DNA of 20,000 bases from an uncultured virus (IMG/VR IMGVR_UViG_3300011437_000001) (taxonomy: Duplodnaviria > Heunggongvirae > Uroviricota > Caudoviricetes). A model generated the notes under the pieces. That model saw only the letters and a program-made list of their open reading frames with translations. It had not been told where the DNA came from and searched no databases. Positions 2,307-20,000 of this stretch are shown piece after piece (position 1 is the first letter of the stretch; the number at the start of each line of letters is the position of its first letter). The stretch lies in the IMG/VR virus record IMGVR_UViG_3300011437_000001, one strand, 5' to 3'. The translations under genes and the position numbers were made by a program.

Positions 2307-2324
2307 CCAAAGAAGGAGATTCAA

Positions 2325-2570: not shown

Positions 2571-2573
2571 CTC

Positions 2574-3323: not shown

Positions 3324-3333
3324 GTAAAAACCC

Positions 3334-4175: not shown

Positions 4176-4195
4176 GCAAAGAGAGGGCAGTCACA

Positions 4196-5781: not shown

Positions 5782-5799
5782 GAGGAGGTCGATTCACCA

Positions 5800-7164
5800 A
5801 TGCCCGCGACCGCACCTTACCAGCCCATCACCCCCAACGGTTCGCCTGACTTTCCGCAGGCGAACCTTTCCACGCGACCCGAGTGGGACGACTTCGATCG
5901 CCCGGAGTTTGCGCCAGAGCCGCAGGCCCCGCAGCGGCCGCCGACCATGTACCCCGGCGCGGCGGACATGTACGCCCGCGAACAGCAGGTGATGAACGGC
6001 GGCGCCGGAGGCATGGGCGCGCCGTCGGGCGGCGATCCGGCGCAGGAGTTTTACCAGCGGCTGATGGAGGCCCAGGAGTTCATCGCCATGCACCGCGAGG
6101 CGCAGGCTCCGCTCCCGCAGGCACCAAACGTGCCGACTCCGCCGCGCATGATGGATTTCGCGGAGTGGGCAGACCAGAAGTACCCGGAATTTGCCGGGCG
6201 TTACGTTACCCCGGAACTGGCGCGCACGATTCGCGCTCAGTACGAGTCCGAGATGGAAATGGCCCAGCAGATGTACGCCAACGATATGGACCGCTTCGGC
6301 GCGGAGATCGAGGCGGCCAAGTTCCTGATGGGCGGCGGTGGTCGAGGCGGTCGCGGCGGCGACGGCAATCCACTGGCTGACGCCATGGAGATGATGAAGC
6401 TGCAAAAGGACTTCATGCCCGAGCAGCCGGAAGCGCCGGGGAGCATCGATGCCTGGCTCGCGGGCAACCTGAACGAAGGCAAAACTCCGCAAGAAGTCGG
6501 CGGCATGCGCCGGAACATCATGGGTATGGAAGGCGGCGAAGAGGACGACGGCCTGATGACCGGCATGGCCAAGGGTCGCACCGCCGATCACCTGTGGTGG
6601 CAGATGACCCTCTCCGCCATGGGCTACAACAGTCCGCAAGACATCCCCGCGGAGAAGCGGCAGCAGGTGCTCACGTCGCTGATGAAGGACTTCCAGCAGT
6701 GGAAAACGCGCCCCGACAAGTTCGACGCGCTGGCTCTCGCCGGCAAGATGATGGGCGGCGGCCTGGAGTTCACCGACGAAGAGATCGAGCAGCAGTTCGG
6801 ACCCGGCACCGCGCCGCTCATTCGCAAGCGGCTGATGGAGCAGTTGCAGGGCGGCAGCGGCCAGCTACCGCAGGGGCCAACCCCTGCGACTGAGTCGTTA
6901 CCGCAGGGGTTCCCGGGCATGCAAGCGCCTCCCGCCATGCCCGCGATGCAATCCGGCGCACCCAACCCGTTCCCGGACCCGGAAGTGGACCTTGCCCCCG
7001 TTGCGGAGTTTCTGGAAGCTGTCCGCGGCGGGGAGATCAACCTTGACGAAGCCATGGAAGCCATCGTGACCGCTGTTGCCGATGGGACGATCGACCGCAA
7101 CACGGGCCGCGCGGCCATGGCAGAACTCCGCAAGATTCGTCCGCCCACCGGTCAGCAACCGTAA
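5800..7164 (+). CDS. Putative internal virion/ejection protein 4 (Pro/Met/Gln/Glu-rich, 454 aa)
   Basis: Strong GAGGAGGT Shine-Dalgarno, Cys-free, GC-rich codon usage, TAATG overlap with the giant gene. Confidence 0.65.
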   Translation: MPATAPYQPITPNGSPDFPQANLSTRPEWDDFDRPEFAPEPQAPQRPPTMYPGAADMYAREQQVMNGGAGGMGAPSGGDPAQEFYQRLMEAQEFIAMHREAQAPLPQAPNVPTPPRMMDFAEWADQKYPEFAGRYVTPELARTIRAQYESEMEMAQQMYANDMDRFGAEIEAAKFLMGGGGRGGRGGDGNPLADAMEMMKLQKDFMPEQPEAPGSIDAWLAGNLNEGKTPQEVGGMRRNIMGMEGGEEDDGLMTGMAKGRTADHLWWQMTLSAMGYNSPQDIPAEKRQQVLTSLMKDFQQWKTRPDKFDALALAGKMMGGGLEFTDEEIEQQFGPGTAPLIRKRLMEQLQGGSGQLPQGPTPATESLPQGFPGMQAPPAMPAMQSGAPNPFPDPEVDLAPVAEFLEAVRGGEINLDEAMEAIVTAVADGTIDRNTGRAAMAELRKIRPPTGQQP

Positions 7165-10100
7165 TGCCCAACGACAACCCGTTCATCGTTAAGCCCACCT
7201 TCGACGAACTCGTCCAAGGTGAGAAGATGCTCCAGGTCGCGGAGCGCGCTTACCGTGCGCGCTACGAGCACGCCGAGCGCGAAGCCGCCAAGCCCAAGCC
7301 GCCGCCGGAAAAGAAGGGCTTTTTCCGCAAAGCTCGCGACATCGCCGTCGAAGGCGCGTCCCACACCCTGCCCGGGCAGATCGCGCAACTCGCCGCCGGC
7401 GTGCAACTCACGCCCGAGACGATGGGCACTGAGGACCTCGGCACCGTGGGACGCGGCATGGCGGGCATCGGCGGCTTTGCGGCGGACCCCGTAACCTGGG
7501 GCAGCATGGGCTTGGGGCGTCTGGCCGGCGGTGCAGCCATGAAGGGCGCAGCCACCATACTCGGCGAGAAGGGCATGCAGAAGGTCGCCGAGTCCGGGCT
7601 GAAGCGCCTGGCGCTGAAGGGTGCGACTGCTGCTCCCGCCGGCGCGACCACACTGGCCGGCATCGAAGCGGTCAAGAACCCGTTCGCGCAACTCATCGCC
7701 ACGGGCGAATACAGCCCGGGCGAGCACGCCAAGGAAACACTCAAGAGCGCGGCACTCGGCGGCGCTGCGGGAGCCGCTGGTGCGTTGCCCATGGTCGGCT
7801 TGCCGGCGGAAGTCGCCACCTTCGCGGTGGGCGAACCGCTGCTGCACGGCGAAATGCCAGACCAAGAGGATTGGCTGAACGCGGCCATGACCATCGGCGG
7901 TTTGCGTGCCGCGGGCATCGTGACGCGGGGGATGAAGGATGTCGCCGCCCGCACCCCGCCCAAGGAAGTGGCGAAGAACATCCTCCGCGAGATGGACCCG
8001 CGCGAGGGCCTGTTCGTGTTCCGCGCCGCCCAGCACGCCCGGGCCCAGCGGGAGAACGCCTACAAGTACGCGCCGCCGGAAGGCACCAACGGGCGCTACG
8101 AGCCCATCCCCGTCACCTTGACGCCCGACGGCAAGCCCGCCAAAGGCACCAAGTGGGCGGTGCGGGATAAAGACGCCGACCGCATCGACGCCAAGCAGTA
8201 CGACAACTTCCTCGATGCGGCGAGCTCGGCGGACAAGGTGAACTTCACCGTCGCCGATCAGCCCAACCTCACGGCCAAGTCGCCGCTGGAAGTGGCGGAG
8301 CCGGGGCCTGTAGGTACCAGCGCTGCCCCACGGGGTCCGACGGCGGAAACGCCGACGCAGGCTCCGGCTCCCGCTACTCCGCCGGCCAAGCCCACCTTCC
8401 GCCAGTTCGTCGAGTCCAAAGGGTTCAAGTTGCCCGAGGGGAAGCCGACTCCCGAGCAGGTAGCCCAGATCAAGGCGTTCAAGGCGGAATACGACGCCAT
8501 CGGCGTTAAACCTGTCAGCACCACTGAACAGCCTCTAAAAACGCCGCAAACGGCCCAAGGAGCAACGCAGGCCGTTCCGAGTCCAACCGCACAGGGTAAG
8601 CCCGTAGAACCTCTTGGCGCAAGCGGGATCGATAAATTCGAGCTAAGCCAAGAGTCAGCCGTTGGTCAGCCTGCACCGGTAGTGCCAAAAACCAAGCCGG
8701 TCACGAAAAAGGCCATCGGCCAGGGCGTTAAGGATGCCCGTTCGGAGGTCCAGAAGCTCTACCAGCGGCACCGGGAGGTCATCGACGGGGAAGAGCCGGG
8801 GGTGCGTGACCGGGCCTTGTCCGAAGAGGCCAACGTCGAAACCGCCCTGCGGCCTGGGTACTCCTTCAAGCAAGGGTACGAGTCCCAGGCCAAGGAACTC
8901 CAGGAGCGGCTGCCGGCTGACCTGCGGAAGAACGTGCGGGTGGTGAAAAAGGGTTCGCCCAACTACCAGTCCGCCGACGGCCAGGACGTGTTCGCCGGCG
9001 TGGGCACGGACAAGATGGCGGAGTCCATCATCCGCTACGCCGAGCAGGCCCCGGGGCGCAACAATGCGGCCGCCCTCGATCGCACCATCCAGTTCGCCAA
9101 GTCCAACCCGGAGATGTTCACCCCGGAAGAGCATGGGGTGATCAAGAACTACGAGCAGTCGCGCGTCGGCGAAGGCGTGGAACCCATCGCGGCTGAGCAG
9201 CTCAAGGTCGGCGACCAGTTCGAGATCCAGGGCAAGCCACACAAGGTGGAGGGGATCAGCCCGGACACCGGCAAAGTCAAGATCACCGACGACATCGATA
9301 TCGACCTGCCGGCCAGGGGCAAGGTGTTTGCGGATAAGGGGAGCCTGCGAGAGAAGCCGGCGAGCGTGGAGTTTGACCCCTTCGAGATTGAAGAGAACCC
9401 CTTCCGGCAGGAAGCCGCGATTCCCCCCCGCACCTCCGAGACCATGGGCGAAGCCATCGCCCTGTCGTCTCCGTCGGGCAAGATCAGCAAACGCGCCAAG
9501 CAAGCCGCAGAGCAGCGGCTGGGCGAAAAGCTGTTCGGCAAAGAGGGATTGCAGCGAACGCAGCCGGAGCAGCCAGCACCAGCAGAAGCCGCCGCACGCA
9601 AAGCCAAGGAGTTGCGCGACCTTGCGGCGCGAGGCATGAAGCCCAAGGCGTACGCGAAGGAAGCCGCGCGGCTGGAAGCTGAAGCCGCCAAGCCTCAGGA
9701 AATCGAATACTTCAAGGGCGACAGGATTCAGTACACCGGCAAGGTGACCCCCGAAGGCTGGCGTGAGTTCGTCTACCTGGAAGGTGCCAAGAAGGGGCAG
9801 ACCGGCGTTGCGCCCACGGCGGAGATGATCGCCAAGGATCGCGCGCAGCGGCAGAAGGAAGAGGCGGACATGCAAGCCGGGTTCCGCCGGCTCGCAGAAT
9901 CGCAGAAGAAGGAAACCCGCCAGCCCAAGCAGATCATCGAGGACACGGTAGCCGAGAATCTGGCCGCCGCGGGCAAGAGCGACCCGGTGACGTTCACTGA
10001 CGGCACGCGCACGCTGCAACTGTGGAAGAGCAAAACGCTGGCCGGCACGCGCTACACGATCGCGGAGCTCAAGGACGGGAAGCCCGTCGGCACCTGGACC

Positions 10101-13100
10101 TACGCCAGCCGCAACGAAGCCATCCGCAGCATCTCCGGCGCAACCACCAAGCAAGGCTCCGCCGTCGGCAGCGTGAAGATGCGGGTGAAGCCGGCAGGCA
10201 CGGCGGAAGCGGCGCCGCCAGAGGCCATGTCCGATGCGAAGTGGGATGCGGACAATCGGGCCGCCAAAGAAAAGTCCTACAACGAAAATCTACCCGGCGC
10301 GGCGAACAAGCAGACCATTGCCGAGGACGTTGCCACGTGGGGCGCACAGCTCGGCTACGCGCCGCAGCGAATCATCGATGATCTTGTGCGAGCTGGACGC
10401 GACAAAGCGGATGCCGAGCTAGCCGTGAAGTTTGCCTTTGAGCGCACCGGCAAGCCGCTCAAGCCCGCCATGGCCCGGATGGAGAAGCCCAAGGCCGAAG
10501 TCGGCGTGCCCCTCAAGACCGAGAAGGGCCTGCTCAACCAGGACATCGACATCACCAAGCGCGGCGCGGGGGGTAAGCAAGAAACCCTCTCCCCCAAGAT
10601 CGACGAGCAGATCGCGGACAACAAGGCCGCCGCCAAGCAGCGCGAACTGGACAAAGAGATCGGGCAGCAGCCGCTCTTCGGAGATCCACCGCCGCCGGGC
10701 GGAGATCAAATGGGCATCAAGGCCCCGTTCTTCTTCAAGCCCGAGTCCATGGAGAAGTCCGCCCGCATGCTGGGCGAGCAGATGGAGCGCGCCGTCTACA
10801 GGCTGGCGAAAGCGACCAGGCTGGACAAGGTATTCAAGTTCCGCACGCCCGCCGAGAAGGAGCAATACCGCAAGGATCTGGAGATCAAGAAGCGCGCGTC
10901 ACTGCGAACCCACGGGCAGAAGGCCATGGCCGCCGCGACCGCCCGCACCGCCCTGAAAGAGTTCGACCAGCTCGCGGACACGGAAAACTCGCTCGCACGC
11001 TATCGCATCCACCAGGCCATCGTGGGGCAGTACCCGATGGAGCGCCTGCCGGAAGCGCATCGCGCCTGGGCGCAGCGGGCGCGTGAACTGCAAGACGAAG
11101 CCTCGCGGGAGTTCCTGGGCGAAGTCGTGCGGCACTTCGGGGCGGACACGCCGCTCGCACGTTCCGTGGCCCAGAACATCGGCACCTACCTGCACGAGGG
11201 ATTCGCCCCCACGGTCAGCGACAAGCTGATCGCCTACCTGCCCGGACGGTTGCGACTGAAAGCTGAACAATTCCAGCGCAAGCGCGACAAGTGGCGGGTG
11301 TTCGTGGGCGGCAAGCCAATCATCGTCAAGGGCCAGGCGGAAGCGGAAGCGCTGCGCCGCGGGCTGCTCTCTCTCCGCGAGCAGACCGAAGCCATCAACC
11401 CGTTCCGGGAAATGCTTGAGTCCCGCAAGGGCTGGGTGAAGAGCAAACTCGAAGAGGGCAAGGTCACGGCGCAGGATCTGAAGAAGGCGATCGCCGGCAA
11501 GAACATCCGCATCGAAAAGCCGCTCACCGAGAAGCAGCGGCTGGATATGGGATTCTCCCGCGACCCGCGCTTCGCCTGGGGCATCAGTTACTCCAAGACG
11601 GCGCACAACACCGCCATGCTGCGACTCTCCCGCCGGCTGAAGAAGCTAGGGCAGGAGCCGCCGACGCTGGTGGCGGGTGACGCCAAGGCGGAAGAGACCT
11701 GGGCCAAGAGCGAAGGGCTGGAGAAGGTCACCGCCTCGGAGAAGATGGTCGGCAGCCTGCACGGCACCTACCTGCCCAAGCGCTGGGCTCGCGACATCAA
11801 CGAAGCGGAGAAGGTCGCGCAGGGCTTCGCCAAGATGTGGCAGGACTACCTCACGATGTGGAAGGTGGCCAAGGTGCTCTACAATCCCGCCACGCACCGC
11901 CGCAACATCACCGGCAACGTGGGCTTCGCCTTCCTGGCCGGCATGTCGCCGTGGAACCCGGCCAATGCCCCGCACCTGCTCAAGGCGTTCACCGACATTA
12001 AGGGCCGCGGGCCGATGTACCAGCTGCTGATGAAAAACGGGGTGATCGGCGGCGAATGGTTCGGCAACGAAGTGTACGAGAAGGGCATCGAGTTCATCCG
12101 CCAGACGCCCGACTCGCCCATGAAAACCATCTGGCACGTGCTGAACAACATCCATGAGGGCGCGGGCCGCCTTTACAACCTGGAAGATCAAATCTGGAAG
12201 GTGTGGCATGCCTACAAGCTGGAGTCGCAGGGGCTCAAGGGCGCACGCCTGGCTCGCGAGGTGAACAAACACTGGCCCAACTACGCCGGTCTGCCGCGCT
12301 GGGTGAAGAAGGTCTCTCGGGATTGGCGGGGCACACCGTTCGTGGCCTTCAACGCGGAAGCCGCCCGCATCTACAAGAACGCGGCGTTGCGGCACCCGGG
12401 CCGGCTGATGCTTTGGACGCTGTGGCCCACCATGCTGACCAAGGGCACCGTGGCCTACCTGGGCATCTCCGACGACGAGAAGGAACTGATCGACGAGAGG
12501 CGGAGCATTCTGCGGGTGCCGGGCACGGAGTTGGAACTCGACTTGCAGCCGCTGCTGCCCTATCGCGACGATCGCGGCGCCGTCCGCACCATCGACATTC
12601 GCTACGACATTCCGCTGGGCAATGAGTTGCTGGAGCTGTTCGAGGGACGCCCGCCGGTAATGATGCAACCCGGCATAGTCACCGTGCAGGACATACTCTA
12701 CAACAAAGACCGCTACACCAAGCAACAGATCGTCAGCGACGACGATCCGCCCTCGACCAAGTTCGCCAAGTACGCGCGGCACTTCTTCCAAGAGACCGTG
12801 CCGGCCCCCTCCTGGGCTCCGACGCAGCACGGCTGGAACCGCGTGCGGGACGCCATCAACGGCACGCGAGAGGACGGCGTGCTGGAAGCCTTCGGTTCGG
12901 CGCTGGGCGGTATCAACTTCCGCCGGCCATACTCGACGCGCGAGGAAGCCCTGCGGCGACTCAAGACCCGCGCACTGCTGGACGATCGCATCGCGGACCT
13001 GGTGCAGCGAGCCATCGGCGAAGACCTGCGGGAGATCCCCAACAAGCGACTGCTGCGGCTGCTGGAGCGCAGCGAAGAAACGCAAACGCTGCTGGAGCTG

Positions 13101-13496
13101 TGGAACCAGTCCTACCGTTCGCTGGGTGGGCCCACGGCCCGCGTGACCGACCCCATCACTTCCGAGACCATCGCCGCCTCGCTCAAGAACGACGTGGCCC
13201 GCATCTCGCTCTTCGAGTTGCGACTGTCGCACCTGATGCAGAAAGACGTGTCCGGGGACATCGACCCCGGGGAGAAGGCGGAGCTGCAATCCATCCGCGA
13301 GTACGAGCCGCAGATCGTGGACATGATGCAGCGCATGCAGGCCGCCGAGGACGACGCGACCAAGGCTCAACTCATCGAACAATTCGACGGGCTGCTGAAA
13401 CGCGCTCGCGTGCAGATGCCGGACGCCAAGCACCCCGAACGGGAGCTGAAGCGTCTGCGCCAGCGCGGGGAGAACCCGCTACGAGATGCCGGATAA
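7164..13496 (+). CDS. Giant internal virion/ejection (large polyvalent-type) protein, 2110 aa
   Basis: Long ORF with an N-terminal Gly/Ala-rich hydrophobic region and Pro/Ala/Lys linkers. The C-terminal helical region has WKVAKVLYNPATHRRNITGN and NYAGLPRWVKKV...TPFVAF motifs typical of large phage ejection proteins. Last gene of the structural block. Confidence 0.75.
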   Translation: MPNDNPFIVKPTFDELVQGEKMLQVAERAYRARYEHAEREAAKPKPPPEKKGFFRKARDIAVEGASHTLPGQIAQLAAGVQLTPETMGTEDLGTVGRGMAGIGGFAADPVTWGSMGLGRLAGGAAMKGAATILGEKGMQKVAESGLKRLALKGATAAPAGATTLAGIEAVKNPFAQLIATGEYSPGEHAKETLKSAALGGAAGAAGALPMVGLPAEVATFAVGEPLLHGEMPDQEDWLNAAMTIGGLRAAGIVTRGMKDVAARTPPKEVAKNILREMDPREGLFVFRAAQHARAQRENAYKYAPPEGTNGRYEPIPVTLTPDGKPAKGTKWAVRDKDADRIDAKQYDNFLDAASSADKVNFTVADQPNLTAKSPLEVAEPGPVGTSAAPRGPTAETPTQAPAPATPPAKPTFRQFVESKGFKLPEGKPTPEQVAQIKAFKAEYDAIGVKPVSTTEQPLKTPQTAQGATQAVPSPTAQGKPVEPLGASGIDKFELSQESAVGQPAPVVPKTKPVTKKAIGQGVKDARSEVQKLYQRHREVIDGEEPGVRDRALSEEANVETALRPGYSFKQGYESQAKELQERLPADLRKNVRVVKKGSPNYQSADGQDVFAGVGTDKMAESIIRYAEQAPGRNNAAALDRTIQFAKSNPEMFTPEEHGVIKNYEQSRVGEGVEPIAAEQLKVGDQFEIQGKPHKVEGISPDTGKVKITDDIDIDLPARGKVFADKGSLREKPASVEFDPFEIEENPFRQEAAIPPRTSETMGEAIALSSPSGKISKRAKQAAEQRLGEKLFGKEGLQRTQPEQPAPAEAAARKAKELRDLAARGMKPKAYAKEAARLEAEAAKPQEIEYFKGDRIQYTGKVTPEGWREFVYLEGAKKGQTGVAPTAEMIAKDRAQRQKEEADMQAGFRRLAESQKKETRQPKQIIEDTVAENLAAAGKSDPVTFTDGTRTLQLWKSKTLAGTRYTIAELKDGKPVGTWTYASRNEAIRSISGATTKQGSAVGSVKMRVKPAGTAEAAPPEAMSDAKWDADNRAAKEKSYNENLPGAANKQTIAEDVATWGAQLGYAPQRIIDDLVRAGRDKADAELAVKFAFERTGKPLKPAMARMEKPKAEVGVPLKTEKGLLNQDIDITKRGAGGKQETLSPKIDEQIADNKAAAKQRELDKEIGQQPLFGDPPPPGGDQMGIKAPFFFKPESMEKSARMLGEQMERAVYRLAKATRLDKVFKFRTPAEKEQYRKDLEIKKRASLRTHGQKAMAAATARTALKEFDQLADTENSLARYRIHQAIVGQYPMERLPEAHRAWAQRARELQDEASREFLGEVVRHFGADTPLARSVAQNIGTYLHEGFAPTVSDKLIAYLPGRLRLKAEQFQRKRDKWRVFVGGKPIIVKGQAEAEALRRGLLSLREQTEAINPFREMLESRKGWVKSKLEEGKVTAQDLKKAIAGKNIRIEKPLTEKQRLDMGFSRDPRFAWGISYSKTAHNTAMLRLSRRLKKLGQEPPTLVAGDAKAEETWAKSEGLEKVTASEKMVGSLHGTYLPKRWARDINEAEKVAQGFAKMWQDYLTMWKVAKVLYNPATHRRNITGNVGFAFLAGMSPWNPANAPHLLKAFTDIKGRGPMYQLLMKNGVIGGEWFGNEVYEKGIEFIRQTPDSPMKTIWHVLNNIHEGAGRLYNLEDQIWKVWHAYKLESQGLKGARLAREVNKHWPNYAGLPRWVKKVSRDWRGTPFVAFNAEAARIYKNAALRHPGRLMLWTLWPTMLTKGTVAYLGISDDEKELIDERRSILRVPGTELELDLQPLLPYRDDRGAVRTIDIRYDIPLGNELLELFEGRPPVMMQPGIVTVQDILYNKDRYTKQQIVSDDDPPSTKFAKYARHFFQETVPAPSWAPTQHGWNRVRDAINGTREDGVLEAFGSALGGINFRRPYSTREEALRRLKTRALLDDRIADLVQRAIGEDLREIPNKRLLRLLERSEETQTLLELWNQSYRSLGGPTARVTDPITSETIAASLKNDVARISLFELRLSHLMQKDVSGDIDPGEKAELQSIREYEPQIVDMMQRMQAAEDDATKAQLIEQFDGLLKRARVQMPDAKHPERELKRLRQRGENPLRDAG

Positions 13497-13547
13497 CCGC
13501 AAAACCCTGCGCTACCGCTGCCCGGACGTTTGAAGTCAGCTGATTAC

Positions 13548-13594
13548 TGTCAAGGGGGCTAAACTTGACACTAGCCGAATTGACGTTCTAGGCT
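13548..13594. promoter_or_regulatory. Inverted repeat TGTCAAG-N9-CTTGACA (back-to-back TTGACA); possible + strand sigma70 promoter
   Basis: TGTCAAG 13548-13554 and CTTGACA 13564-13570. TTGACA (13565-13570) is followed after 18 nt by TAGGCT (13589-13594). Confidence 0.4.
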
Positions 13595-13612
13595 CTTAGG
13601 GGAAAGAATGAT

Positions 13613-13696
13613 TGCCCCGGCGGGGGCTCGAACCCCGACGGCCTTTCGACCGACAGCTTCCAAAGCTGCTCCGTCTGCCAATTCCGGCACCGGGGC
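13613..13696 (-). tRNA. Class II (long variable arm) tRNA with Leu-type body and anticodon UGG (Pro); no encoded CCA
   Basis: Reverse complement folds as GCCCCGG UG CCG GAAUUGGCAGA CGG A GCAGC UUUGGAA GCUGU CGGUC GAAA GGCCG U CGGGG UUCGAGC CCCCG CCGGGGC A. All stems pair. Confidence 0.93.
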
Positions 13697-13829
13697 GGTT
13701 TCTAGATGCGGGGGAGACGACGGCCATGCCCTTGCAAGGTGACCGTCGCCCCCCGCTTGCTTTCTGGGGGCTGTCTAGGGCTATTGGCGGTAAGTTAGGC
13801 TGGTTGCGTCAAGTCGATCGCGTGCGTGC

Positions 13830-14204
13830 TCATATCTTGATCTCCTGCATCACGGCGGTGATCTCCGCCGGGTCTACCTCGAAATAATCCGCCGCCGCCA
13901 GCACGCGGCCCCACGAACCCTCGTCCCAGCGCGTGGCGTCCAGCAGCCAGAACTGCTCCAGGGTCTGCGCGCTCAATAGCGGCAACTGCCGGCGGGACGC
14001 ATGCTCGGGGGTAAGCAGAATCTCCAGCCAGCAAGCCAAACACATCTGGCTATCGACGCGGTGACCTTCGGTGGCGCGGTAGTACGCGGGCACGAAGCGC
14101 TCGATCTTTGGGTCCTGGCGGGAACACCACGCACACCAGAACCCAATCGTACGCTCGCACCCGCCTTGGAGGCGCTTGCGATGTCGTCTTTTGCGCGAGG
14201 CCAT
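13830..14204 (-). CDS. Hypothetical protein with two CxxC motifs (possible Zn binding)
   Basis: WCAWC and MCLAC motifs and a basic N-terminus. Starts 10 nt after the stop of the sigma gene on the same strand. Confidence 0.6.
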   Translation of the reverse strand: MASRKRRHRKRLQGGCERTIGFWCAWCSRQDPKIERFVPAYYRATEGHRVDSQMCLACWLEILLTPEHASRRQLPLLSAQTLEQFWLLDATRWDEGSWGRVLAAADYFEVDPAEITAVMQEIKI

Positions 14205-14214
14205 ACCACGACAA

Positions 14215-14784
14215 TCATGGCTGCAACAGCAGCTTCTCTATCGCCTGGACCTTGATCTGGTGCGAACGCTGCTTGCTCACTCCGACCATGGCGGCGATCT
14301 CCCTGTGTGTCAGCCTATCCGCCCGCATGCTCAGCACGACCAACTCTTGCTCCGACAACCGCGACAGGCGGGGATGCTCTTCGGGCACTCCGCCGGTGGG
14401 CTTGGCTTCCGCGTCAGCCAGCCACCCAGAACCCGCGTTTTGCAGCTTTTGCGCTTTAGACGATCGATGCGCGCTGCGAATCGCCCGGTCGATGGCGCGC
14501 ACGGCGTAGGTGCTGAACTTCACGCCCCGGCTTGGTGAAAAGCTGCGCACGGCACGCAGGAACGCGAGCATCCCGTCGGAATAGATGGGGTCCAAGTCGA
14601 TCCTCCTGGACTGCCGCTCCAAATGGGCCGTGACCCTACTCACCAGCAAGGGCATGTTGGCCTTGATGAAGGCGCTGATGATCGTGCTGCACGGATCACA
14701 TAGAGGAAGGTGGGGGCGGCGCTTGCCGACCTGCCCCCTCTTGTTGCGGCACCCGCAGCGATCCAATGTGGCCCACGGCTCCAT
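14215..14784 (-). CDS. Phage-encoded sigma-70 family factor (regions 2 and 4 only)
   Basis: Region 2-like DGMLAFLRAVRSFSPSRGVKFSTYAVRAIDRAI. Region 4 HTH LSEQELVVLSMRADRLTHREIAAMVGVSKQRSHQIKVQAIEKL. AAGGA upstream. Confidence 0.85.
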   Translation of the reverse strand: MEPWATLDRCGCRNKRGQVGKRRPHLPLCDPCSTIISAFIKANMPLLVSRVTAHLERQSRRIDLDPIYSDGMLAFLRAVRSFSPSRGVKFSTYAVRAIDRAIRSAHRSSKAQKLQNAGSGWLADAEAKPTGGVPEEHPRLSRLSEQELVVLSMRADRLTHREIAAMVGVSKQRSHQIKVQAIEKLLLQP

Positions 14785-14799
14785 TCCAGCGAGTCCTTT

Positions 14800-15186
14800 T
14801 TACTTCGCCGGCTTGGCCAGCTTGAGCTTGGGGCTGTGCCCGTTGCGCGTCGCGTCCGCGGCCTTCGCCGGCTCGCTTGGCGGCTGGTTCACGGGCTCTG
14901 CGGTCGGCGCATTCGCCTGGGGCTTGGCTGCCGGCGGCGCCACCACCGCCAATTCATCCAGGCGCAGGATCGAGCTGCGTGGAATCTTGTGCATGTTGGC
15001 CACGCCCTGCGCCGTGCGAATTTGCGCCACCACGATGTAGCCGTCGGACGCATGGATCAGCGTGCCCACGACCTCGATCATGGACAACTGCTGCTCGCAC
15101 CATTGCCGAATCGACTGGCCACTCAGAAGGTCGGGGTGGCTCTGCGAATTGACCCACGACACGCGAACCCAATCATTGATCTTCAC
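14800..15186 (-). CDS. Phage hypothetical protein, small beta domain with Pro/Ala-rich tail
   Basis: AGGAGA Shine-Dalgarno before GTG. The pattern VRVSW...IEVVGTLI...YIVVA...KIPRSSI resembles a common small phage family. Confidence 0.65.
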   Translation of the reverse strand: MKINDWVRVSWVNSQSHPDLLSGQSIRQWCEQQLSMIEVVGTLIHASDGYIVVAQIRTAQGVANMHKIPRSSILRLDELAVVAPPAAKPQANAPTAEPVNQPPSEPAKAADATRNGHSPKLKLAKPAK

Positions 15187-15215
15187 TGAGATGTTCTCCT
15201 GCTGCTAAAAAAGAG

Positions 15216-15283
15216 GCCCCGGCACGCTCACGCGACAAGCGGGTTAGTCTCGACCGCTGGGCTGGCCAGACCAGCACCGGGGC
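15216..15283 (-). ncRNA. Candidate 68-nt tRNA-like four-way-junction RNA followed by U6
   Basis: GCCCCGG/CCGGGGC closing stem encloses three hairpins: GCUGG/CCAGC, AGCGG/CCGCU and CGC-GUGA-GCG. T6 on the - strand at 15207-15212. Confidence 0.45.
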
Positions 15284-15328
15284 GAAAGTTCAAAACGTCA
15301 GCCGCCGATCAGCGTTTGCAAGATCGGC

Positions 15329-15367
15329 AAAAAAAGAGGAGCGCGTCGTGGCGCGACCGCACTCCTC
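15329..15367 (-). terminator. Intrinsic terminator
   Basis: - strand GAGGAGTGCGGTCG-CGCCA-CGACGCGCTCCTC followed directly by T7. Confidence 0.7.
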
Positions 15368-15492
15368 CTTTATCGTTCCGATGCCGGGGGGCCAGTCCCG
15401 GTTTAGGCCATGACGCGGAGGACCGCGACATTTCGGGGAACAAAAGGTCGCGGGCGAGTCCGGTTCCCCAACGCGATCCCACCCGCGCGGGC

Positions 15493-15579
15493 TCAAAACC
15501 CGACAATCACCTGGATGGCCGCAAACAGGCCAACCAAGAGTGCGATGAACTCCAGCCACAGTCCTTCAAAGAACGTCAT
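15493..15579 (-). CDS. 28-aa single-helix hydrophobic peptide (not in ORF track)
   Basis: MTFFEGLWLEFIALLVGLFAAIQVIVGF*. AGGAAGGA Shine-Dalgarno about 9 nt upstream of ATG. Confidence 0.7.
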   Translation of the reverse strand: MTFFEGLWLEFIALLVGLFAAIQVIVGF

Positions 15580-15608
15580 TTGGGTGTTTCCTTCCTGCGG
15601 CTTGGCCG

Positions 15609-15980
15609 CTAGTTGTTCCCAGGCTCCTGCACCGCCATGGAACCCGTAGGCGTCACTGGCTCGCCATAGGGATCATTGATGTCGGTAGCAACCTCCTCCG
15701 TTTTGCGGCGCTCGTCCTTGATGAACCAGTCGAGCACATCTTGCTTGACCTCGAAGGTCACGCACTGCCCCTCGCCCGGCCCAAGGACAATCTTTTGGCC
15801 GAGGAACTCCATGCGGTATTCGCCGCAGTTACGGCAGCCGGTAGCCAGGCAGAACACTAACAGTGTGGCGCATCCCGCCGCGAGTTCGGCGTTCCACACG
15901 GAGCCCCAACGACGGCGCATGTCTCGACCGCAGTCGGCGCAGTACCCATAGCGGTCAATGTTCTTGTGGTCGCATGGCAT
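15609..15980 (-). CDS. Hypothetical membrane or lipoprotein-like protein with N-terminal Cys/His cluster
   Basis: CDH...CADC, then hydrophobic ATLLVFCLATGC (lipobox-like). Packed in the - strand gene run. Confidence 0.55.
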   Translation of the reverse strand: MPCDHKNIDRYGYCADCGRDMRRRWGSVWNAELAAGCATLLVFCLATGCRNCGEYRMEFLGQKIVLGPGEGQCVTFEVKQDVLDWFIKDERRKTEEVATDINDPYGEPVTPTGSMAVQEPGNN

Positions 15981-15986
15981 CAGTTG

Positions 15987-16136
15987 TTACTCTACGTGGC
16001 TGTGGGTCTTGGATTCCTCGGGAACCACGTCCTCGCAAGGCTCCCACTGCTGATCAACCCAGCAAGCGCCCCGATTGATCGCCGCGCATCCACTGAACCC
16101 GAGACACAGCACCAACAGCAACAATGTTTTCTTCAT
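15987..16136 (-). CDS. Small lipoprotein (49 aa)
   Basis: GAAAGGAA Shine-Dalgarno before ATG 16136. MKKTLLLLVLCLGFSGC signal peptide and lipobox. Confidence 0.7.
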   Translation of the reverse strand: MKKTLLLLVLCLGFSGCAAINRGACWVDQQWEPCEDVVPEESKTHSHVE

Positions 16137-16146
16137 ACAGTTCCTT

Positions 16147-16290
16147 TCATTCGCAAGTGCATAACCCGATTCTGTCTCTAAGCCCACGGCTGGGCGGAAT
16201 CGGTTGGTTCTTGATTTCCTCTAAGACCTCGACCGCCTTACGGTGCAGTTCTGCCTCCGCATCTTTGAGTAACTGCTCAAACGGTCGCAT
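16147..16290 (-). CDS. Small hypothetical protein (47 aa; not in ORF track)
   Basis: MRPFEQLLKDAEAELHRKAVEVLEEIKNQPIPPSRGLRDRIGLCTCE*. ATG immediately follows the upstream TGA and fills the gap between genes. Confidence 0.5.
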   Translation of the reverse strand: MRPFEQLLKDAEAELHRKAVEVLEEIKNQPIPPSRGLRDRIGLCTCE

Positions 16291-16539
16291 TCACTTTCCC
16301 GCTGGACGTTTGTCCAGCCCCTTCTCCTTGAGCAGCTTCGCCAAATCGTCCATGTGCAGGCAGTCGCACAGGCACGCCGAAGCACCGGGGCTTTGAATCT
16401 GAGCGATGCGCCCATTGCAGTAGTCGTTTCCCGGCTGCGCTTCAACTAGATAGCCGATCGCGCAGACGCTCGTGCCGTCGTGGTTGATGTGAACGATTGA
16501 ATCGCCATTCTTCGCTTCACGACCATTTCGATAGTGCAT
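16291..16539 (-). CDS. Phage hypothetical protein (82 aa)
   Basis: AAAGGA Shine-Dalgarno. MHYRNGREAKNGD start and CLCDCLH motif. Confidence 0.7.
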   Translation of the reverse strand: MHYRNGREAKNGDSIVHINHDGTSVCAIGYLVEAQPGNDYCNGRIAQIQSPGASACLCDCLHMDDLAKLLKEKGLDKRPAGK

Positions 16540-16552
16540 TACCCTGTTCCTT

Positions 16553-16954
16553 TCAGGTAAGTTTCTTCACTCGTTTATGCACCGTCGCGTTCACCGCGTC
16601 GTGGTGCAGCTTCATGTGGGCCTTCACGTCCGGCCCCCAATCCTCAATATACCCGATCATTCTATCCGTTGACTGGCGGTATCGCACGCCCTTCCATGCG
16701 GCAAAACCAAGGCACGCGCAGCCAAGATAGGCAGCACCGAGCTGAATGTTGACCGTGGTGATGATGTTGCCGTCTCCGCTCGCTCGATTGTCCGTGCTCG
16801 CCGTCTGCGGCCTGGTGGCAACGTCAACGTGCGTATCAATCACCGGGGCTTTGAGACACCCAACCAGCATCCATATGGTGAAAAACACGAGAAATCCAGT
16901 GATGGAAATCAACCATATTGCCCGTCGAAAGAGCGGTTTCGGGGGATAGGTCAT
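16553..16954 (-). CDS. Membrane or lipoprotein with two hydrophobic segments (133 aa)
   Basis: AIWLISITGFLVFFTIWMLVGC (lipobox-like), and a second segment IQLGAAYLGCACLGFAAW. Confidence 0.6.
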   Translation of the reverse strand: MTYPPKPLFRRAIWLISITGFLVFFTIWMLVGCLKAPVIDTHVDVATRPQTASTDNRASGDGNIITTVNIQLGAAYLGCACLGFAAWKGVRYRQSTDRMIGYIEDWGPDVKAHMKLHHDAVNATVHKRVKKLT

Positions 16955-16960
16955 AGCTTC

Positions 16961-17203
16961 TCAACATAGACGAATCTGGGTGTATCCGATTCGTTCGGCC
17001 AGCTTTTTTGTGCCCAACATGATTTCGCTGGAGCCACCCCAAATATGTGAGCCCACGAGAGCATCCAAATGTGGCACAGGGTTCAGTACCTTGAGGCACG
17101 GTTGCCCTGCTGGGGCACGCTTATCGTTGGCCGGGCCGAGGTCTAATTCGGCGGTACCATCGGGTAAATAGCGGACATCCTGGATAATCGCGTCAATGCT
17201 CAT
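16961..17203 (-). CDS. Hypothetical protein (80 aa)
   Basis: ATG ORF packed in the - strand run, with globular-looking composition. Confidence 0.6.
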   Translation of the reverse strand: MSIDAIIQDVRYLPDGTAELDLGPANDKRAPAGQPCLKVLNPVPHLDALVGSHIWGGSSEIMLGTKKLAERIGYTQIRLC

Positions 17204-17265
17204 GTTTTTTCGTATCTTCCCGGCAGCCCCTTCGCTCGTAGATGCCCGTGCTGGCTCAGCTTGAG

Positions 17266-17448
17266 CTAATAGGCACCAATCGATTCCACGCAGTCCATGG
17301 CGTTAACCTGAAGGGCCAGCACGCGGTCATAAACCACCATGCCCTTGCGGATGCCTTCCAATTCACGGGCCACCTTGAGGTTGACCAATTCCTCGCGGTC
17401 CAGGGGATCGTCTGCTCGCTTGGCGCAGTTCATTCCGGTGGCTACCAA
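17266..17448 (-). CDS. Hypothetical protein (60 aa)
   Basis: Fills the gap between two - strand genes. Start is uncertain. Confidence 0.35.
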   Translation of the reverse strand: MVATGMNCAKRADDPLDREELVNLKVARELEGIRKGMVVYDRVLALQVNAMDCVESIGAY

Positions 17449-17903
17449 CCTTGCTGGATGTTGACTTCGCCGATGATGACCACGTCGGCCTGAATGACGC
17501 CGAATCCGTACAGCGCATCATTCGGAGCCACCGGACCCGTGTTGCCAAAAGCCGGGAGCTTCTGCCCGTTGAGCCAATACAGCACGCCGATCTGGCGCAT
17601 TTCGCCGTTGGGCATTCGGCAGTCGTAGGTCATCACCGGATTTGGCTTGCCAGCGCTTTCGTGACCAAGCTGGAACGCAATGGCGCTCACGTCGCCCATG
17701 ACCATCACGTTGACATTACCCGTGCAGCGCAGGCCCTTCTCGCCGAAGCTCGCCTGGCCGGTTGGCCAGTTCGGCTGCTTGGCGACAACCTCCAGGTTGC
17801 CCGCCAGCACAGCGATGACGCCCGGTGGGCCGTTCAGCGTGAGCGCGCCAGCCACTGGACCAAGGGGCAAACTCTCAAAATCTGTTTTCGCTACAAGTGG
17901 CAT
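17442..17903 (-). CDS. Hypothetical beta-rich protein (153 aa)
   Basis: GGAAAGGA Shine-Dalgarno 6 nt before ATG 17903. GC-rich codon usage. Confidence 0.65.
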   Translation of the reverse strand: MPLVAKTDFESLPLGPVAGALTLNGPPGVIAVLAGNLEVVAKQPNWPTGQASFGEKGLRCTGNVNVMVMGDVSAIAFQLGHESAGKPNPVMTYDCRMPNGEMRQIGVLYWLNGQKLPAFGNTGPVAPNDALYGFGVIQADVVIIGEVNIQQGW

Positions 17904-17990
17904 TTGCAATCCTTTCCACGTGAAGAAAAAAGGCGAAGGTAGAGGGCCGCCGCCGTACTAACACGACGGCCCCCCACCCGCGCCAAGGAA

Positions 17991-18239
17991 TTACGCAGTT
18001 GGCGGAACCGGCGGCGTCAGGTTGTCCAACGCCTCCAGCTTCGCGGTGAGCGCATCGCTCTGCGCTTCGATCTCGTTCAGCAGCGTCTGATCTTCCGGCG
18101 TGAGGACCGGCGGCGTGTTCTGCAACTGCTCGATCTTGGCGTTCAGTGCCGCCACATCGGCGACCGCACCGTCGATAGCCGTAGCTTGACGGGCATTGAA
18201 GGCGTTGATCTTTGCGGCGAATTCAGAAATTTGACTCAT
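17991..18239 (-). CDS. Small coiled-coil protein (82 aa)
   Basis: AAGGAG Shine-Dalgarno. Heptad-like sequence ending LTPEDQTLLNEI...KLEALDNLTPP. Confidence 0.75.
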   Translation of the reverse strand: MSQISEFAAKINAFNARQATAIDGAVADVAALNAKIEQLQNTPPVLTPEDQTLLNEIEAQSDALTAKLEALDNLTPPVPPTA

Positions 18240-18259
18240 TGTCTTACTCCTTCTGGTTG

Positions 18260-18496
18260 TTAGGAAGCCGGTGGCGTTGCGGCGTCCAACGCTTCAAGCT
18301 TCCTGGTTGTCTTGCCAGTTTTGGCTAAAATGTCCTTGAGAGACGCCTGATCTTCTGGGGAAAGCTTGCCGAGTTCGTCAATGGCACTTCTCGTTTCTGC
18401 ACCCTGTCCAAGTAATGACCACAACAGGATTCTGTTCGTCGCTAACAGGCGTCGAATCTGACGTAACTCGGAAACTAACGATAACTGTTGGTTCAT
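18260..18496 (-). CDS. Small helical protein sharing a C-terminal motif with its neighbour (78 aa)
   Basis: GGAGA Shine-Dalgarno. LSPEDQASLKDI...KLEALDAATPP. Confidence 0.65.
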   Translation of the reverse strand: MNQQLSLVSELRQIRRLLATNRILLWSLLGQGAETRSAIDELGKLSPEDQASLKDILAKTGKTTRKLEALDAATPPAS

Positions 18497-18532
18497 TGGT
18501 TGTTCTCCGCGCGGCGTCTTCCACTCGCTGCG

Positions 18533-18748
18533 CTACCGGTTGTCGATTCGCGGGATGGCTGGATCGTAATTCAGAATCCCCATGGCTCGCATCAACACCA
18601 GCACGAGCATGGCGCAAACCGCGATGATGATGATTGCCTTCACCGCTGGCGGCATCGGAATATAGGTCGTTACAGACCACGCGATTAAGCCCAAGACGAC
18701 TGCTAGCACGATGAATTCAATAATTCCGATGGCACACCATCCTTTCAC
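18533..18748 (-). CDS. Small two-helix membrane protein (Thivi_2564-like pattern; possible holin)
   Basis: IIEFIVLAVVLGLIAWSVTTYIPMPPAVKAIIIIAVCAMLVLVLM: two hydrophobic helices joined by YIPMPP. GTGA overlap with the upstream stop. Confidence 0.7.
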   Translation of the reverse strand: MKGWCAIGIIEFIVLAVVLGLIAWSVTTYIPMPPAVKAIIIIAVCAMLVLVLMRAMGILNYDPAIPRIDNR

Positions 18749-19062
18749 TTTTCGATTTCTCTCAACATAGCATCATACGCCCTTTGCTCCAGCCTGTCGT
18801 ACTCAACCTGCTGCCGTGTATCATGCTCGCGCACGTACCCCAGCAGCATCCCCCCCATGAAGGCCGATAGCGTCAGCAGAAGCCCGAATCCACCGATAAT
18901 GAGCGGCCATTTCGTCTGCTGTCCTGTAACGACTTGATCGGACAGCTTGGCAATCGAGGCTGTAAGAGCATCGCCCCACCGCTGAAACGCCTCGACGGCC
19001 TTCTCCAGACCGCCAATGCGGAATTCGTTCGACGCGGCCTTGTCGTTTTGCAACTCGTCCAT
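18745..19062 (-). CDS. Coiled-coil plus single transmembrane protein (105 aa)
   Basis: RIGGLEKAVE...IAKLSDQV, then WPLIIGGFGLLLTLSAFMGGMLLGY. Typical of phage lysis-region membrane proteins. Confidence 0.65.
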   Translation of the reverse strand: MDELQNDKAASNEFRIGGLEKAVEAFQRWGDALTASIAKLSDQVVTGQQTKWPLIIGGFGLLLTLSAFMGGMLLGYVREHDTRQQVEYDRLEQRAYDAMLREIEK

Positions 19063-19065
19063 TTT

Positions 19066-19503
19066 TCACAGCCAGCCGATGTTGCCGAAGATTCCGTCGT
19101 TATCGATTTCGCTCTCGCCGTCCCGTTCCACGGTTAATTCGAGGCGCACGAGATGTGGCAGGTAATCGTGCGTGATGATGCCCGCATTGTGAAACACCGT
19201 GGGGTCTGAAATGACGAGGTGCGAATGGTCGTTGCGCAGCCGCCCGTCATCGTAGAACCCGTAGCACTTCGGGATGCCCGGCGTCTGGCATGACTTGGCG
19301 ACTCCGAAGCCAGCGGTCTTATTCGGGATTTCCACTACGACCGGCGACGGCCCGCCATGGGCAATCAGAGTAGGCACCGTCCAGTCGGAACCGTCATGGT
19401 CTCGGAAGGTGTGGTCGCGGAATGAGAACTTGCCATCCGCCCGGGAGATGCGAACCCCGTCCAGGACTATTTCGCTGAGGTTGTCGAAGCTGAGCTTCGT
19501 CAT
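19066..19503 (-). CDS. Hypothetical protein (145 aa)
   Basis: GAAAGGA Shine-Dalgarno before ATG. Packed 3 nt from the next gene. Confidence 0.65.
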   Translation of the reverse strand: MTKLSFDNLSEIVLDGVRISRADGKFSFRDHTFRDHDGSDWTVPTLIAHGGPSPVVVEIPNKTAGFGVAKSCQTPGIPKCYGFYDDGRLRNDHSHLVISDPTVFHNAGIITHDYLPHLVRLELTVERDGESEIDNDGIFGNIGWL

Positions 19504-19519
19504 GCCCGAATCCTTTCGG

Positions 19520-19807
19520 TCAGCCCGCTGCGTCCGAGCCCATTGTATGCCCCATATTTTCTACGTAAATCTCTTTTCGGCAATGGGGGCAGCGGGCCGG
19601 AAGACGCGTTCGGCCCTTATCTGTAAGTGAATTGTTTGTGTCTATCAACCCGTGCCGTCGCAGGCAGACGATAATTTCGTAGGCGCTGCCGCGATGCACG
19701 CTGAGCGAATTGGCCACGTGCTGGATTGTCGGTGGGGTTCCCGTCCGCAGCTTGTGCGCGGCGATGTATTTGAGCGCCTGAAGCTGGCGCTTGGTCGGGT
19801 TTCTCAC
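19520..19807 (-). CDS. LexA-like N-terminal winged-HTH DNA-binding protein with C-terminal CxxC; no peptidase domain
   Basis: PTKRQLQALKYI...GTPPTIQHVANSLSV...AYEIIVCLRRHGLI. GGAGG lies 5 nt before GTG 19807. CPHC near the C-terminus. Confidence 0.75.
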   Translation of the reverse strand: MRNPTKRQLQALKYIAAHKLRTGTPPTIQHVANSLSVHRGSAYEIIVCLRRHGLIDTNNSLTDKGRTRLPARCPHCRKEIYVENMGHTMGSDAAG

Positions 19808-19850
19808 CCCTTCCTCCCTCCCCATTCCTTGCTCGGCTTGCAATGGGCAA

Positions 19851-20000
19851 TCACGTACACCCTACCTTTAGAACAATCGTCGCCTTGTCCCATTCAACGT
19901 CCAGGTCGCAATCGTCACCACCTTCCGGGTCGTCGTCGGGCATAACTTCCATCCATGCATCACAGTGCTTGCAGACCCACAAGATGAACGAGTCGTCCTC
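19851..20000 (-). CDS. Partial acidic hypothetical protein with CxxC (starts beyond the window)
   Basis: Open frame from 20000: EDDSFILWVCKHCDAWMEVMPDDDPEGGDDCDLDVEWDKATIVLKVGCT*. Confidence 0.45.
   Translation of the reverse strand, partial: EDDSFILWVCKHCDAWMEVMPDDDPEGGDDCDLDVEWDKATIVLKVGCT

Follow-up and report, generated by a model that had tools for sequence, protein, structure and literature searches.

Natural transfer RNAs (tRNAs) that uncouple the anticodon from the amino acid are rare, and nev-tRNAs, allo-tRNAs and tRNA-ProX have each changed views on the fixity of the genetic code. The nev-tRNAs of nematodes are class II molecules with glycine or isoleucine anticodons, and their leucylation has been predicted or shown; they are not known to be connected with mobile elements or with any codon matched to them. 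Subgroups that carry passenger genes occur in the IS1595 transposon family, as recorded in ISfinder. Among natural bacterial and phage tRNAs, the allo-tRNAs and the polycistrons of irregular tRNAs, known from Acidobacteria and soil metagenomes, combine the body recognised by an anticodon-blind synthetase with a foreign anticodon; they occur in soil and sediment metagenomes near transposon-related and toxin-antitoxin genes, and their expression in E. coli gave missense insertion and toxicity (Mukai et al. 2017, PMC5389517). In Streptomyces and Kitasatospora, the tRNA-ProX/ProRSx systems have a proline body with alanine, asparagine, or threonine anticodons and a dedicated synthetase gene alongside (PMC11415595). 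An engineered tRNA-Leu(UGG) is active in yeast, where it decodes proline codons and is toxic (PMC11028032). The gene considered here lies at 13613-13696 on the minus strand of a 20,000-nucleotide stretch (the window) from an uncultured virus of the Caudoviricetes (IMG/VR IMGVR_UViG_3300011437_000001). It belongs to a family of horizontally mobile leucine-type tRNAs with the anticodon switched to the proline anticodon UGG and with A37 replacing the canonical G37. With about equal weight for and against, the window gene is read as a mobile-element tRNA that would be charged with leucine, an amino acid deduced from its body, and would decode CCA and CCG.

The gene is the only tRNA that ARAGORN finds in the window. 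It is 84 nt long, with UGG at position 35, and is a class II tRNA gene with a leucine-type body and no encoded CCA; ARAGORN, a parse by fixed anchors on the reverse complement of the window, and contigs from two other studies all support it. In the anchor parse the acceptor strands GCCCCGG/CCGGGGC pair at 7/7 positions and are followed by U8 and G9. The D stem CCG/CGG pairs at 3/3, with the D loop GAAUUGGCAGA and then A26. The anticodon stem GCAGC/GCUGU pairs at 5/5, including one G-U pair, and encloses the loop U32 U33 U34 G35 G36 A37 A38 (13658-13664, minus strand; anticodon 13660-13662). The variable arm CGGUC-GAAA-GGCCG (13638-13652, minus strand), followed by U48, folds into 5 bp with a GAAA loop and is identical to the arm of a tRNA-Leu(UAG) gene of Burkholderia phage BcepSaruman. 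The T arm CGGGG-UUCGAGC-CCCCG pairs at 5/5, the discriminator is A73, and the acceptor end is G1:C72. The molecule is thus a canonical 7/5 cloverleaf, with 7/3/5/5 pairs, U8, GAAUUGGCAGA, U33, and the T loop UUCGAGC. Every structural detail that an earlier sequence-only reading had described, from the 84-nt length and the stems to the variable arm, G1:C72, A73, and the loop UU-UGG-AA, is present, and the lack of any stem defect agrees with its view that the gene is not a decaying pseudogene.

The single-sequence fold has a predicted energy of -46 kcal/mol, against -36.1 +/- 3.2 in 200 dinucleotide shuffles (z -3.12; one shuffle equals it). In silico, this fold also closes U32-A38 and U33-A37, which is usual for tRNA loops. 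The Rfam model RF00005, with a criterion of >29 bits, reports no match for the window or for the identical metagenome locus L043 in gathering and E-value modes. The same model scores relatives at 50.7 bits (L055, 91% identical to the window tRNA), 54.2 bits (L153), and 42 bits (the copy in phage G002). Its silence on the window tRNA is not taken as evidence against a tRNA. A terminator-like call at the gene is merely the acceptor/T stem and was not used. Likewise not used was the result of a promoter scan, which gives one promoter-like site only, on the plus strand and antisense to the tRNA.

The sequence is reproduced outside the window. The 13.3-kb metagenome contig L043 has 100% identity to the window over 657 nt, and contigs of runs X3 and X4, from two other studies, cover 13300-13800 and 13521-13931 with 0 differences. 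The window tRNA is therefore not an assembly error, a point for which the earlier reading had proposed checking the anticodon-loop bases. The contigs of run X6 are short and leave 13597-13893 uncovered; no inference is drawn from them.

The body is of the tRNA-Leu type; the anticodon loop is not. Bacterial leucyl-tRNA synthetase (LeuRS) recognises A73, the D arm with the tertiary core, and A15:U48, and ignores the anticodon. The window tRNA has A73, a long variable arm, a leucine-type D arm (3-bp stem and G18G19 placement), and A15 with U48. A leucine anticodon (NAG or NAA), with the G37 of CUN readers, is absent; the window tRNA has UGG and A37. Its D arm matches those of Leu(CAG) and Leu(GAG) in the acidobacterial metagenome-assembled genome (MAG) G003 and of the BcepSaruman leucine genes. 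The proline side is represented by the NGG anticodon together with A73. Other features of tRNA-Pro (a short variable loop, C1:G72, G37, and G15:C48) are missing; in the window tRNA the variable region measures 15 nt, the acceptor end is G1:C72, and A37 and A15:U48 are present. The replacement of G37 by A37 removes the site of TrmD (m1G37). The combination of leucine-type features and a proline anticodon described in the earlier reading thus stands. So does its contrast with bacterial tRNA-Pro: the tRNA-Pro genes of G003 are short-armed with C1:G72 and G37, none of which is found here.

Among 50,697 phage records, the best matches are the BcepSaruman gene (80.6% over 62 nt), which ARAGORN calls tRNA-Leu(tag), and a gene of Microbacterium phage Magritte annotated as tRNA-Leu. 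The anticodon loop differs from that of BcepSaruman at three positions, with UU-UGG-AA in the window and UU-UAG-GU in the phage gene. From these identity elements, and from the occurrence of the same body with other anticodons, we infer charging with leucine.

Relatives with the same combination form a real tRNA family that is under selection, as sequence comparison shows. A first pattern, which fixed only the leucine-type D loop, YU-UGG, the long arm, and GGTTCRA, occurs at 15 places in IMG/VR, one of which is a tRNA. This copy is in G002, a 47.5-kb phage (98% complete by CheckV) that shares no proteins with the window and has the long-arm tRNA(UGG) as its single tRNA. Exact body patterns, with the loop free or fixed, give 0 matches to close relatives in IMG/VR. 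A slightly tighter pattern gives 82 places in metagenome contigs, and 80 loci were analysed with 300-nt flanks. Together with L008 and the window they make 82 parsed rows. Fully paired cloverleaves account for 56/82 rows and represent 44 distinct sequences from soil, sediment, marine, and gut metagenomes. The 26 excluded rows comprise five non-tRNA matches, nine copies of a 'CCCAAAG' group with an unpaired 3' acceptor strand, and assorted partly mispaired sequences. A further 12 long-arm tRNA(UGG) genes come from bacterial MAGs, and one is in phage G002.

All 44 distinct members have A73 and U48, neither of which was fixed by the search pattern, while the D loop and UGG were fixed. Their acceptor stems come in 30 versions and their variable arms in 42. 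At position 37, 27 members have A, 12 have G, and 5 have C; at the 1:72 pair, 38 have G:C and 4 have C:G. The loop TTTGGAA of the window occurs in 7/44 and CTTGGAA in 11/44. An alignment of 54 distinct sequences, 10 of them from bacterial MAGs, has 97.3% of stem cells paired, a percentage inflated by pre-filtering for pairing, which does not inflate the covariation. Double-sided changes number 367; shuffles give 100.7 +/- 8.8 and slid controls 62-95. Both sides change at 19/23 pairs, and the covariation score is 0.821 against 0.208 in shuffles. Homologues thus keep UGG and have covarying stems, so the UGG is not a private mutation, a possibility that the earlier reading had itself named as a refutation. 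The closest members, judged by sequence, are L055, L024, and L235. L055 keeps UGG in unrelated flanks, and run X4 contains a second, L055-like copy in another context. L024 and L235 have the acceptor stem of the window tRNA with other stems different, and also keep UGG.

A few loci deviate from the well-paired form. In a gut and rumen group (L041, L049, L052, L058, L069, L079, L081, L091, and L099) the acceptor pairs at 5/7 positions and the discriminator is T73. L135 and L145, the copies of this group in a Prevotella MAG, pair at 6/7 and also have T73. The mispairing is due to differences in the final bases of the 3' strand. The Prevotella MAG locus is present twice, 100% identical over ~4 kb, and adjoins a PIN-domain gene. 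The gut and rumen group may represent either an acceptor of another design or a tRNA that an integration event has cut. Genes for NYN- or PIN-domain nucleases adjoin the tRNA(UGG) in 3/12 well-paired genome loci (L116 101-802, L133 1365-2090, and L135 2466-3035), which recalls the toxin-antitoxin neighbourhood of allo-tRNAs. Five loci from long-read assemblies (L036, L038, L054, L088, and L097) look like Streptococcus-type tRNA-Leu(UAG) genes with UGG (compare L108) and were discounted as family members. In the Streptococcus-like ribosomal tRNA array of L038, UGG replaces Leu(UAG) and a four-base anticodon, 'tttt', replaces Lys(ttt). Base-calling errors beside a GATC site probably account for these long-read cases.

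The flanks of the family share one protein. In an all-against-all comparison of flanking open reading frames (ORFs), a single conserved protein adjoins the tRNA in loci of four phyla and in phage G002. This protein, which has zinc-ribbon and DDE domains, is a transposase of the IS1595 type (Pfam PF12760/PF12762). The transposase lies <=300 nt from the tRNA in 17/80 metagenome loci and <=2 kb from it in 7/49 genome loci (five UGG, one UUG, one degenerate), against 0/31 control loci around canonical tRNAs. Where the transposase stop is visible, the tRNA is convergent in 11/13 cases and in tandem in 2/13. The gaps from that stop are 3-91 nt, so the tRNA is placed within the transposon as a passenger, and a search for terminal inverted repeats bounding transposase and tRNA gave nothing convincing. 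Most family members are cargo of IS1595-type transposons, and some, such as the window and G002 copies, are in phage-like elements. The earlier description as a phage tRNA therefore holds in part: the gene with mismatched body and anticodon is real, but it is not specific to phages, since the family is mostly transposon cargo in bacterial genomes.

The transposases beside these tRNAs have a codon that follows the anticodon. The motif GKRL-x-[YL]-[RKQ]-x-X stands near the C terminus and ends with the position in question, X, only a few codons ahead of the stop. It is CCA in 14/19 distinct transposases beside family tRNAs, CAA in the sole element whose tRNA has the anticodon UUG, and CCT beside a degenerate tRNA reading 'AGG'; the remaining three have CTG, CTA, and GCG. 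Codons around X vary synonymously while CCA stays fixed, and the background use of CCA in these genes is 23/92 proline codons. A second set was chosen solely by the transposase and comprises 80 viral loci with 1.5-kb flanks, 46 of which have the motif. Here a long-arm tRNA(UGG) is found at 3/7 loci with CCA, compared with 1/39 other motif loci. In two of the three the tRNA is within the 1.5-kb flank, and in G002 it lies just beyond. The tRNA of L235, which belongs to this set and shares the acceptor stem of the window, has the loop CUUGGAA. The coupling is strong for UGG and CCA, and only suggestive for covariation with other anticodons, where it is a single case among related sequences.

Some further transposases touch on this coupling. 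L214 (IMG/VR) has GKRLKYKS followed by TAA, a stop exactly at X, with a long-arm tRNA(UGG) ~450 nt downstream. A second IS1595 clade (viral loci L215, L217, L236, L244, L250, L251, and L284, and L119) has CCT fixed at X with varying neighbouring codons; ARAGORN finds no tRNA within 1.5 kb of its transposases. L155 (G007) has a 98-nt long-arm tRNA-like gene with UGC (2518-2615) beside another IS1595 homologue, in which X is TCG and does not match. A second CCA-rich column of the transposases, with CCA at 4/5 proline codons, is suggestive only, 13 columns having been inspected.

The same body is found with other anticodons. When 185,579 species genomes were scanned for this body with any N-B-G anticodon, 49 loci emerged, of which 48 were parsed. 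The 28 well-paired loci have UGG (12), GUG (5), GCG (4), CUG (2), UUG (2), CGG (2), and AGG (1). Several anticodons on one body fit an anticodon-blind synthetase better than four anticodon-reading ones. The GCG copies L104, L131, and L141, from Gemmatimonadaceae MAGs, have the loop CUGCGAA with stems that differ in the three MAGs. GUG and CUG are found in L118, L125, L147, L152, L105, and L142, and UUG in L110 and L149. No IS1595 transposase lies within 2 kb of the GCG, GUG, or CUG loci.

The MAG G003 illustrates the host background. It has a full canonical set, nearly all genes with CCA, including three tRNA-Pro and five tRNA-Leu genes; its canonical NAG leucine readers have G37. An extra pair lacks CCA. 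One member is a long tRNA(UGG), whose D arm equals that of the host Leu(CAG) and Leu(GAG); the other is a short tRNA(GCU) of class I. Since the canonical set is complete, the tRNA(UGG) is an addition to normal decoding and not a replacement. The short tRNA(GCU) lies directly beside the long-arm tRNA(UGG) both at L153 2488-2562 (G003:C8:710329-710402) and at L036 203-277, in a metagenome tRNA array. In G003 it has a serine anticodon, no long arm, A73, and no encoded CCA. Seryl-tRNA synthetase should not charge such a molecule, which should be a second mismatched tRNA travelling with tRNA(UGG).

These observations can be arranged into a sequence of events. Host LeuRS would charge the tRNA(UGG), as suggested by the fact that bacterial LeuRS reads A73 and the D arm with the tertiary core but not the anticodon. 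The charged tRNA would pair with CCA and CCG on the ribosome in competition with host tRNA-Pro, and leucine would be inserted at a fraction of these codons. That a leucine body can decode proline codons follows from the activity of the engineered tRNA-Leu(UGG) in yeast, and from its toxicity the natural copy is expected to be weakly expressed or narrowly used. For the transposon-borne copies, the apparent target is the single CCA fixed at position X of the transposase gene. It is this match of codon and anticodon in the usual carriers that argues for ribosomal use, and we infer such use, as we would any benefit to the present element. The window copy stands alone at the 3' end of a leftward operon, behind a strong hairpin, with no client codon identified. 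It may have been captured as transposon cargo, may act on other codons, or may double as an RNA-processing signal behind the terminal hairpin.

A more general form of this proposal is tentative and rather less probable than the reading of the window gene. It holds that leucine-charged tRNAs with switched anticodons are mobile private decoders, borne by IS1595 transposons and phages across phyla and each matched to a fixed transposase codon (UGG with CCA, UUG with CAA). If it were true, an element would read its own codon unlike its host, and a variant protein would be made only when the tRNA is expressed. The solitary window copy would then cause low-level replacement of proline by leucine in host and phage proteins during infection, or would serve an unrecognised client codon.

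Several findings weigh against leucine insertion by the window tRNA. G35, G36, and A73 are determinants of prolyl-tRNA synthetase (ProRS) too, and the proline-like pair C1:G72 occurs in the 4/44 relatives noted above. The D loop and UGG of the relatives were fixed by the search, and the pairing percentage was raised by the pre-filter. The 6034 codons of the window include 45 CCA and 171 CCG (216 in total), and the CCA at P84 in the FSPSRG motif of a sigma factor gene aligns with proline in 81/120 homologues and with leucine in 0. Efficient leucine insertion would therefore damage the element's own proteins. The earlier reading had already stated, citing this motif, that the phage does not look recoded, and the alignment supports it; recoding of the window was rejected on this one informative CCA column. 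In the linked transposases, CCA and CCG align with conserved proline in 15/16 conserved columns, and recoding was rejected there as well. Position X is proline in 16, leucine in 8, and threonine in 7 of the 46 motif-bearing viral loci, with other residues in the rest, and two close relatives have CCG at X with no tRNA within 1.5 kb. Because X is variable in the wider transposase family, the residue wanted there is not revealed as leucine, and the notion that X must be leucine is unsupported. No IS1595 transposase is found in the 20-kb window, either by tblastn or by a profile search at maximum sensitivity (best E 0.21), so the one role inferred for the family has no visible counterpart here. 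A 164-nt peat metatranscriptome contig covers 13680-13761, with one other letter and one gap, and then continues into an L055-type tRNA, but it proves neither charging nor expression of tRNA(UGG).

Part of this evidence would suit a proline tRNA in an unusual body, charged by ProRS through G35, G36, and A73 and giving extra, TrmD-independent decoding of CCA and CCG by virtue of A37, with the meaning of the codons unchanged; an anticodon-reading ProRS was among the alternatives offered in the earlier reading. The standard use of these codons at sigma P84 and in the transposases agrees with this, and with 216 such codons in the window a proline-inserting tRNA would be harmless and possibly useful. 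Proline is also the commonest residue at X, in 75/101 near homologues, and the two relatives with CCG can be seen as having drifted within its codons; the acceptor end C1:G72 of bacterial tRNA-Pro in four relatives points the same way. This explanation is nevertheless unlikely, as the other tested proline features are missing from the family, with G1:C72 in 38/44, A15:U48 in place of G15:C48, A37 in 27/44, and a long arm throughout. Hosts such as G003 already own three canonical tRNA-Pro genes. In other genomes the same body bears glutamine, histidine, and arginine anticodons, the UUG copy lying beside CAA at X, and the charging of one unchanged leucine body by GlnRS, HisRS, ArgRS, and ProRS is improbable.

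The gene might instead not decode at all in this element, acting as an RNase P/Z processing or stability signal that leaves the hairpin as a protected 3' end, as a decoy of enzymes that act on tRNAs, or as inert cargo of a lost transposon. The gene closes the leftward block and comes straight after a strong hairpin, which would suit such a role, as would the RNA-library contig that joins this hairpin to a related tRNA and the failure to find a transposase or other client gene in the window. NYN or PIN nuclease genes adjoin the relatives L116, L133, and L135, and some irregular tRNAs are described as charged and not used in translation (Mukai et al., PMC5389517). A conserved anticodon would be needless for a pure processing signal or an inert relic, yet UGG, A73, and U48 are kept in 44 distinct sequences with 30 acceptor stems; the window copy has no stem defect, and the match of the transposon anticodon to a fixed codon points to ribosomal use in the family. 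The absence of decoding here is accordingly also held to be improbable, to the same degree as the proline tRNA. Far less probable than either is a one-off, in which an ordinary phage tRNA-Leu(UAG) has gained UGG by assembly error or a recent A35-to-G mutation. Such cases exist, as the five long-read loci indicate. For the window gene, the identical sequences of L043 and of contigs from two further studies, the three loop positions (not one) that differ from BcepSaruman Leu(UAG), and the diverged relatives that keep UGG together with A37 refute it as far as contigs can show. Leucine charging with decoding of CCA and CCG is thus retained as the preferred reading.

The tRNA lies in a 333-nt convergent gap between rightward ORFs, which fill 3-13496, and leftward ORFs, which fill 13830-20000. 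The rightward block ends with a 2110-aa ORF (7164-13496, plus strand) that matches no known family in Pfam and PHROG searches; it is convergent with the tRNA, and its stop is 116 nt from the tRNA 3' end. At E <= 0.001, neither this ORF nor the 767-aa ORF at 3-2306 matches Pfam or PHROG. The last ORF of the leftward block encodes 124 aa (13830-14204, minus strand), has no Pfam or PHROG match, and is unrelated to IS1595 transposases; the tRNA is 133 nt downstream of its stop. Next to it is the gene of the sigma-70-family factor (14215-14784, minus strand), identified by Pfam Sigma70_r2 and Sigma70_r4. This factor and a LexA-like DNA-binding protein (19520-19843) are the sole family matches among 22 ORFs tested with Pfam and PHROG, and no integrase is seen among them.

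Directly 5' of the tRNA on the RNA strand is a GC-rich hairpin (13706-13760, minus strand), found as inverted repeat I1 with arms at 13712-13726/13740-13754 and by folding. It may terminate the operon or stabilise an end left by processing. A second inverted repeat, I2, with the arms TACTGTCAAG and CTTGACACTA, was found by repeat search at 13545-13573, in the stretch that separates the tRNA from the 2110-aa ORF. A 10-nt inverted pair flanking the tRNA (13576-13585 and 13807-13816) is too weak to define a cassette. CCA occurs within the last four codons of 4/14 leftward ORFs (~14215-14217, 16300-16302, 17997-17999, and 18269-18271), and is the final codon of the sigma gene. The placement resembles that of the fixed CCA in the transposases. 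A general enrichment of CCA at ORF ends in the window, with 4/16 proline codons in the last 10 codons against 12.5% overall, is post hoc and not significant, and was set aside.

The window represents a novel phage-like element of freshwater-sediment and groundwater metagenomes. The sigma protein is found only in this element, on six contigs of which the longest has 66,636 nt (word-based protein search), and has no relatives in viral contigs. The 7.7-kb IMG/VR fragment G001 is identical to window positions 1314-8995 and does not include the tRNA. The whole window has no match in the phage records by megablast, and the tRNA has none in E. coli genomes.

Compared with the described systems, the window tRNA is most easily distinguished from allo-tRNAs by geometry, as these have 8/4 or 9/3 acceptor/T arms and the serine identity element G73, whereas the window tRNA has 7/5 arms, A73, and a leucine-type D arm. 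A likeness exists in the irregular tRNA with GCU described by Mukai et al. (2017, PMC5389517), since a short tRNA(GCU) stands beside the long tRNA(UGG) in G003. 'UGG' is absent from the main text of that paper, and its supplementary figures may show related sequences. Like the window tRNA, tRNA-ProX has a mismatch of body and anticodon, but its logic is the opposite, with a proline body (PMC11415595); an incomplete search of the loci studied here showed no synthetase gene next to them. The engineered yeast tRNA-Leu(UGG) has the same design of leucine body and UGG and substitutes leucine for proline; it is man-made and strongly growth-inhibiting (PMC11028032), while members of the natural family have A37/A38 and are carried by mobile DNA. 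No tRNA passenger matched to an IS1595 transposase codon was found in print, and no report was found of a natural bacterial or phage leucine-type tRNA with a proline anticodon, in full-text searches that extended neither to subscription papers nor to the supplementary material of Mukai et al. The nev-tRNAs are like the window tRNA in having a leucine-type long-arm body and a non-leucine anticodon, and unlike it in being eukaryotic and chromosomal and in having other anticodons. As in IS1595 elements with passenger genes, the tRNA relatives lie inside the element, while the window copy has no transposase.

To these systems the present analysis adds a bacterial and phage family of canonical geometry that joins a leucine-type body to a proline anticodon and of which no published description was found, and evidence that the family moves across phyla through transposons and phages. 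Because tRNA finders call such genes 'tRNA-Pro' by the anticodon alone, their annotation calls for caution. The family also brings within reach of simple assays the long-standing question of whether mobile elements manipulate decoding to their own benefit. In comparison with the allo-tRNAs, nev-tRNAs, and tRNA-ProX, what is added is a codon of the carrier transposase that follows the tRNA anticodon, a first sign of specific ribosomal use as opposed to genomic noise.

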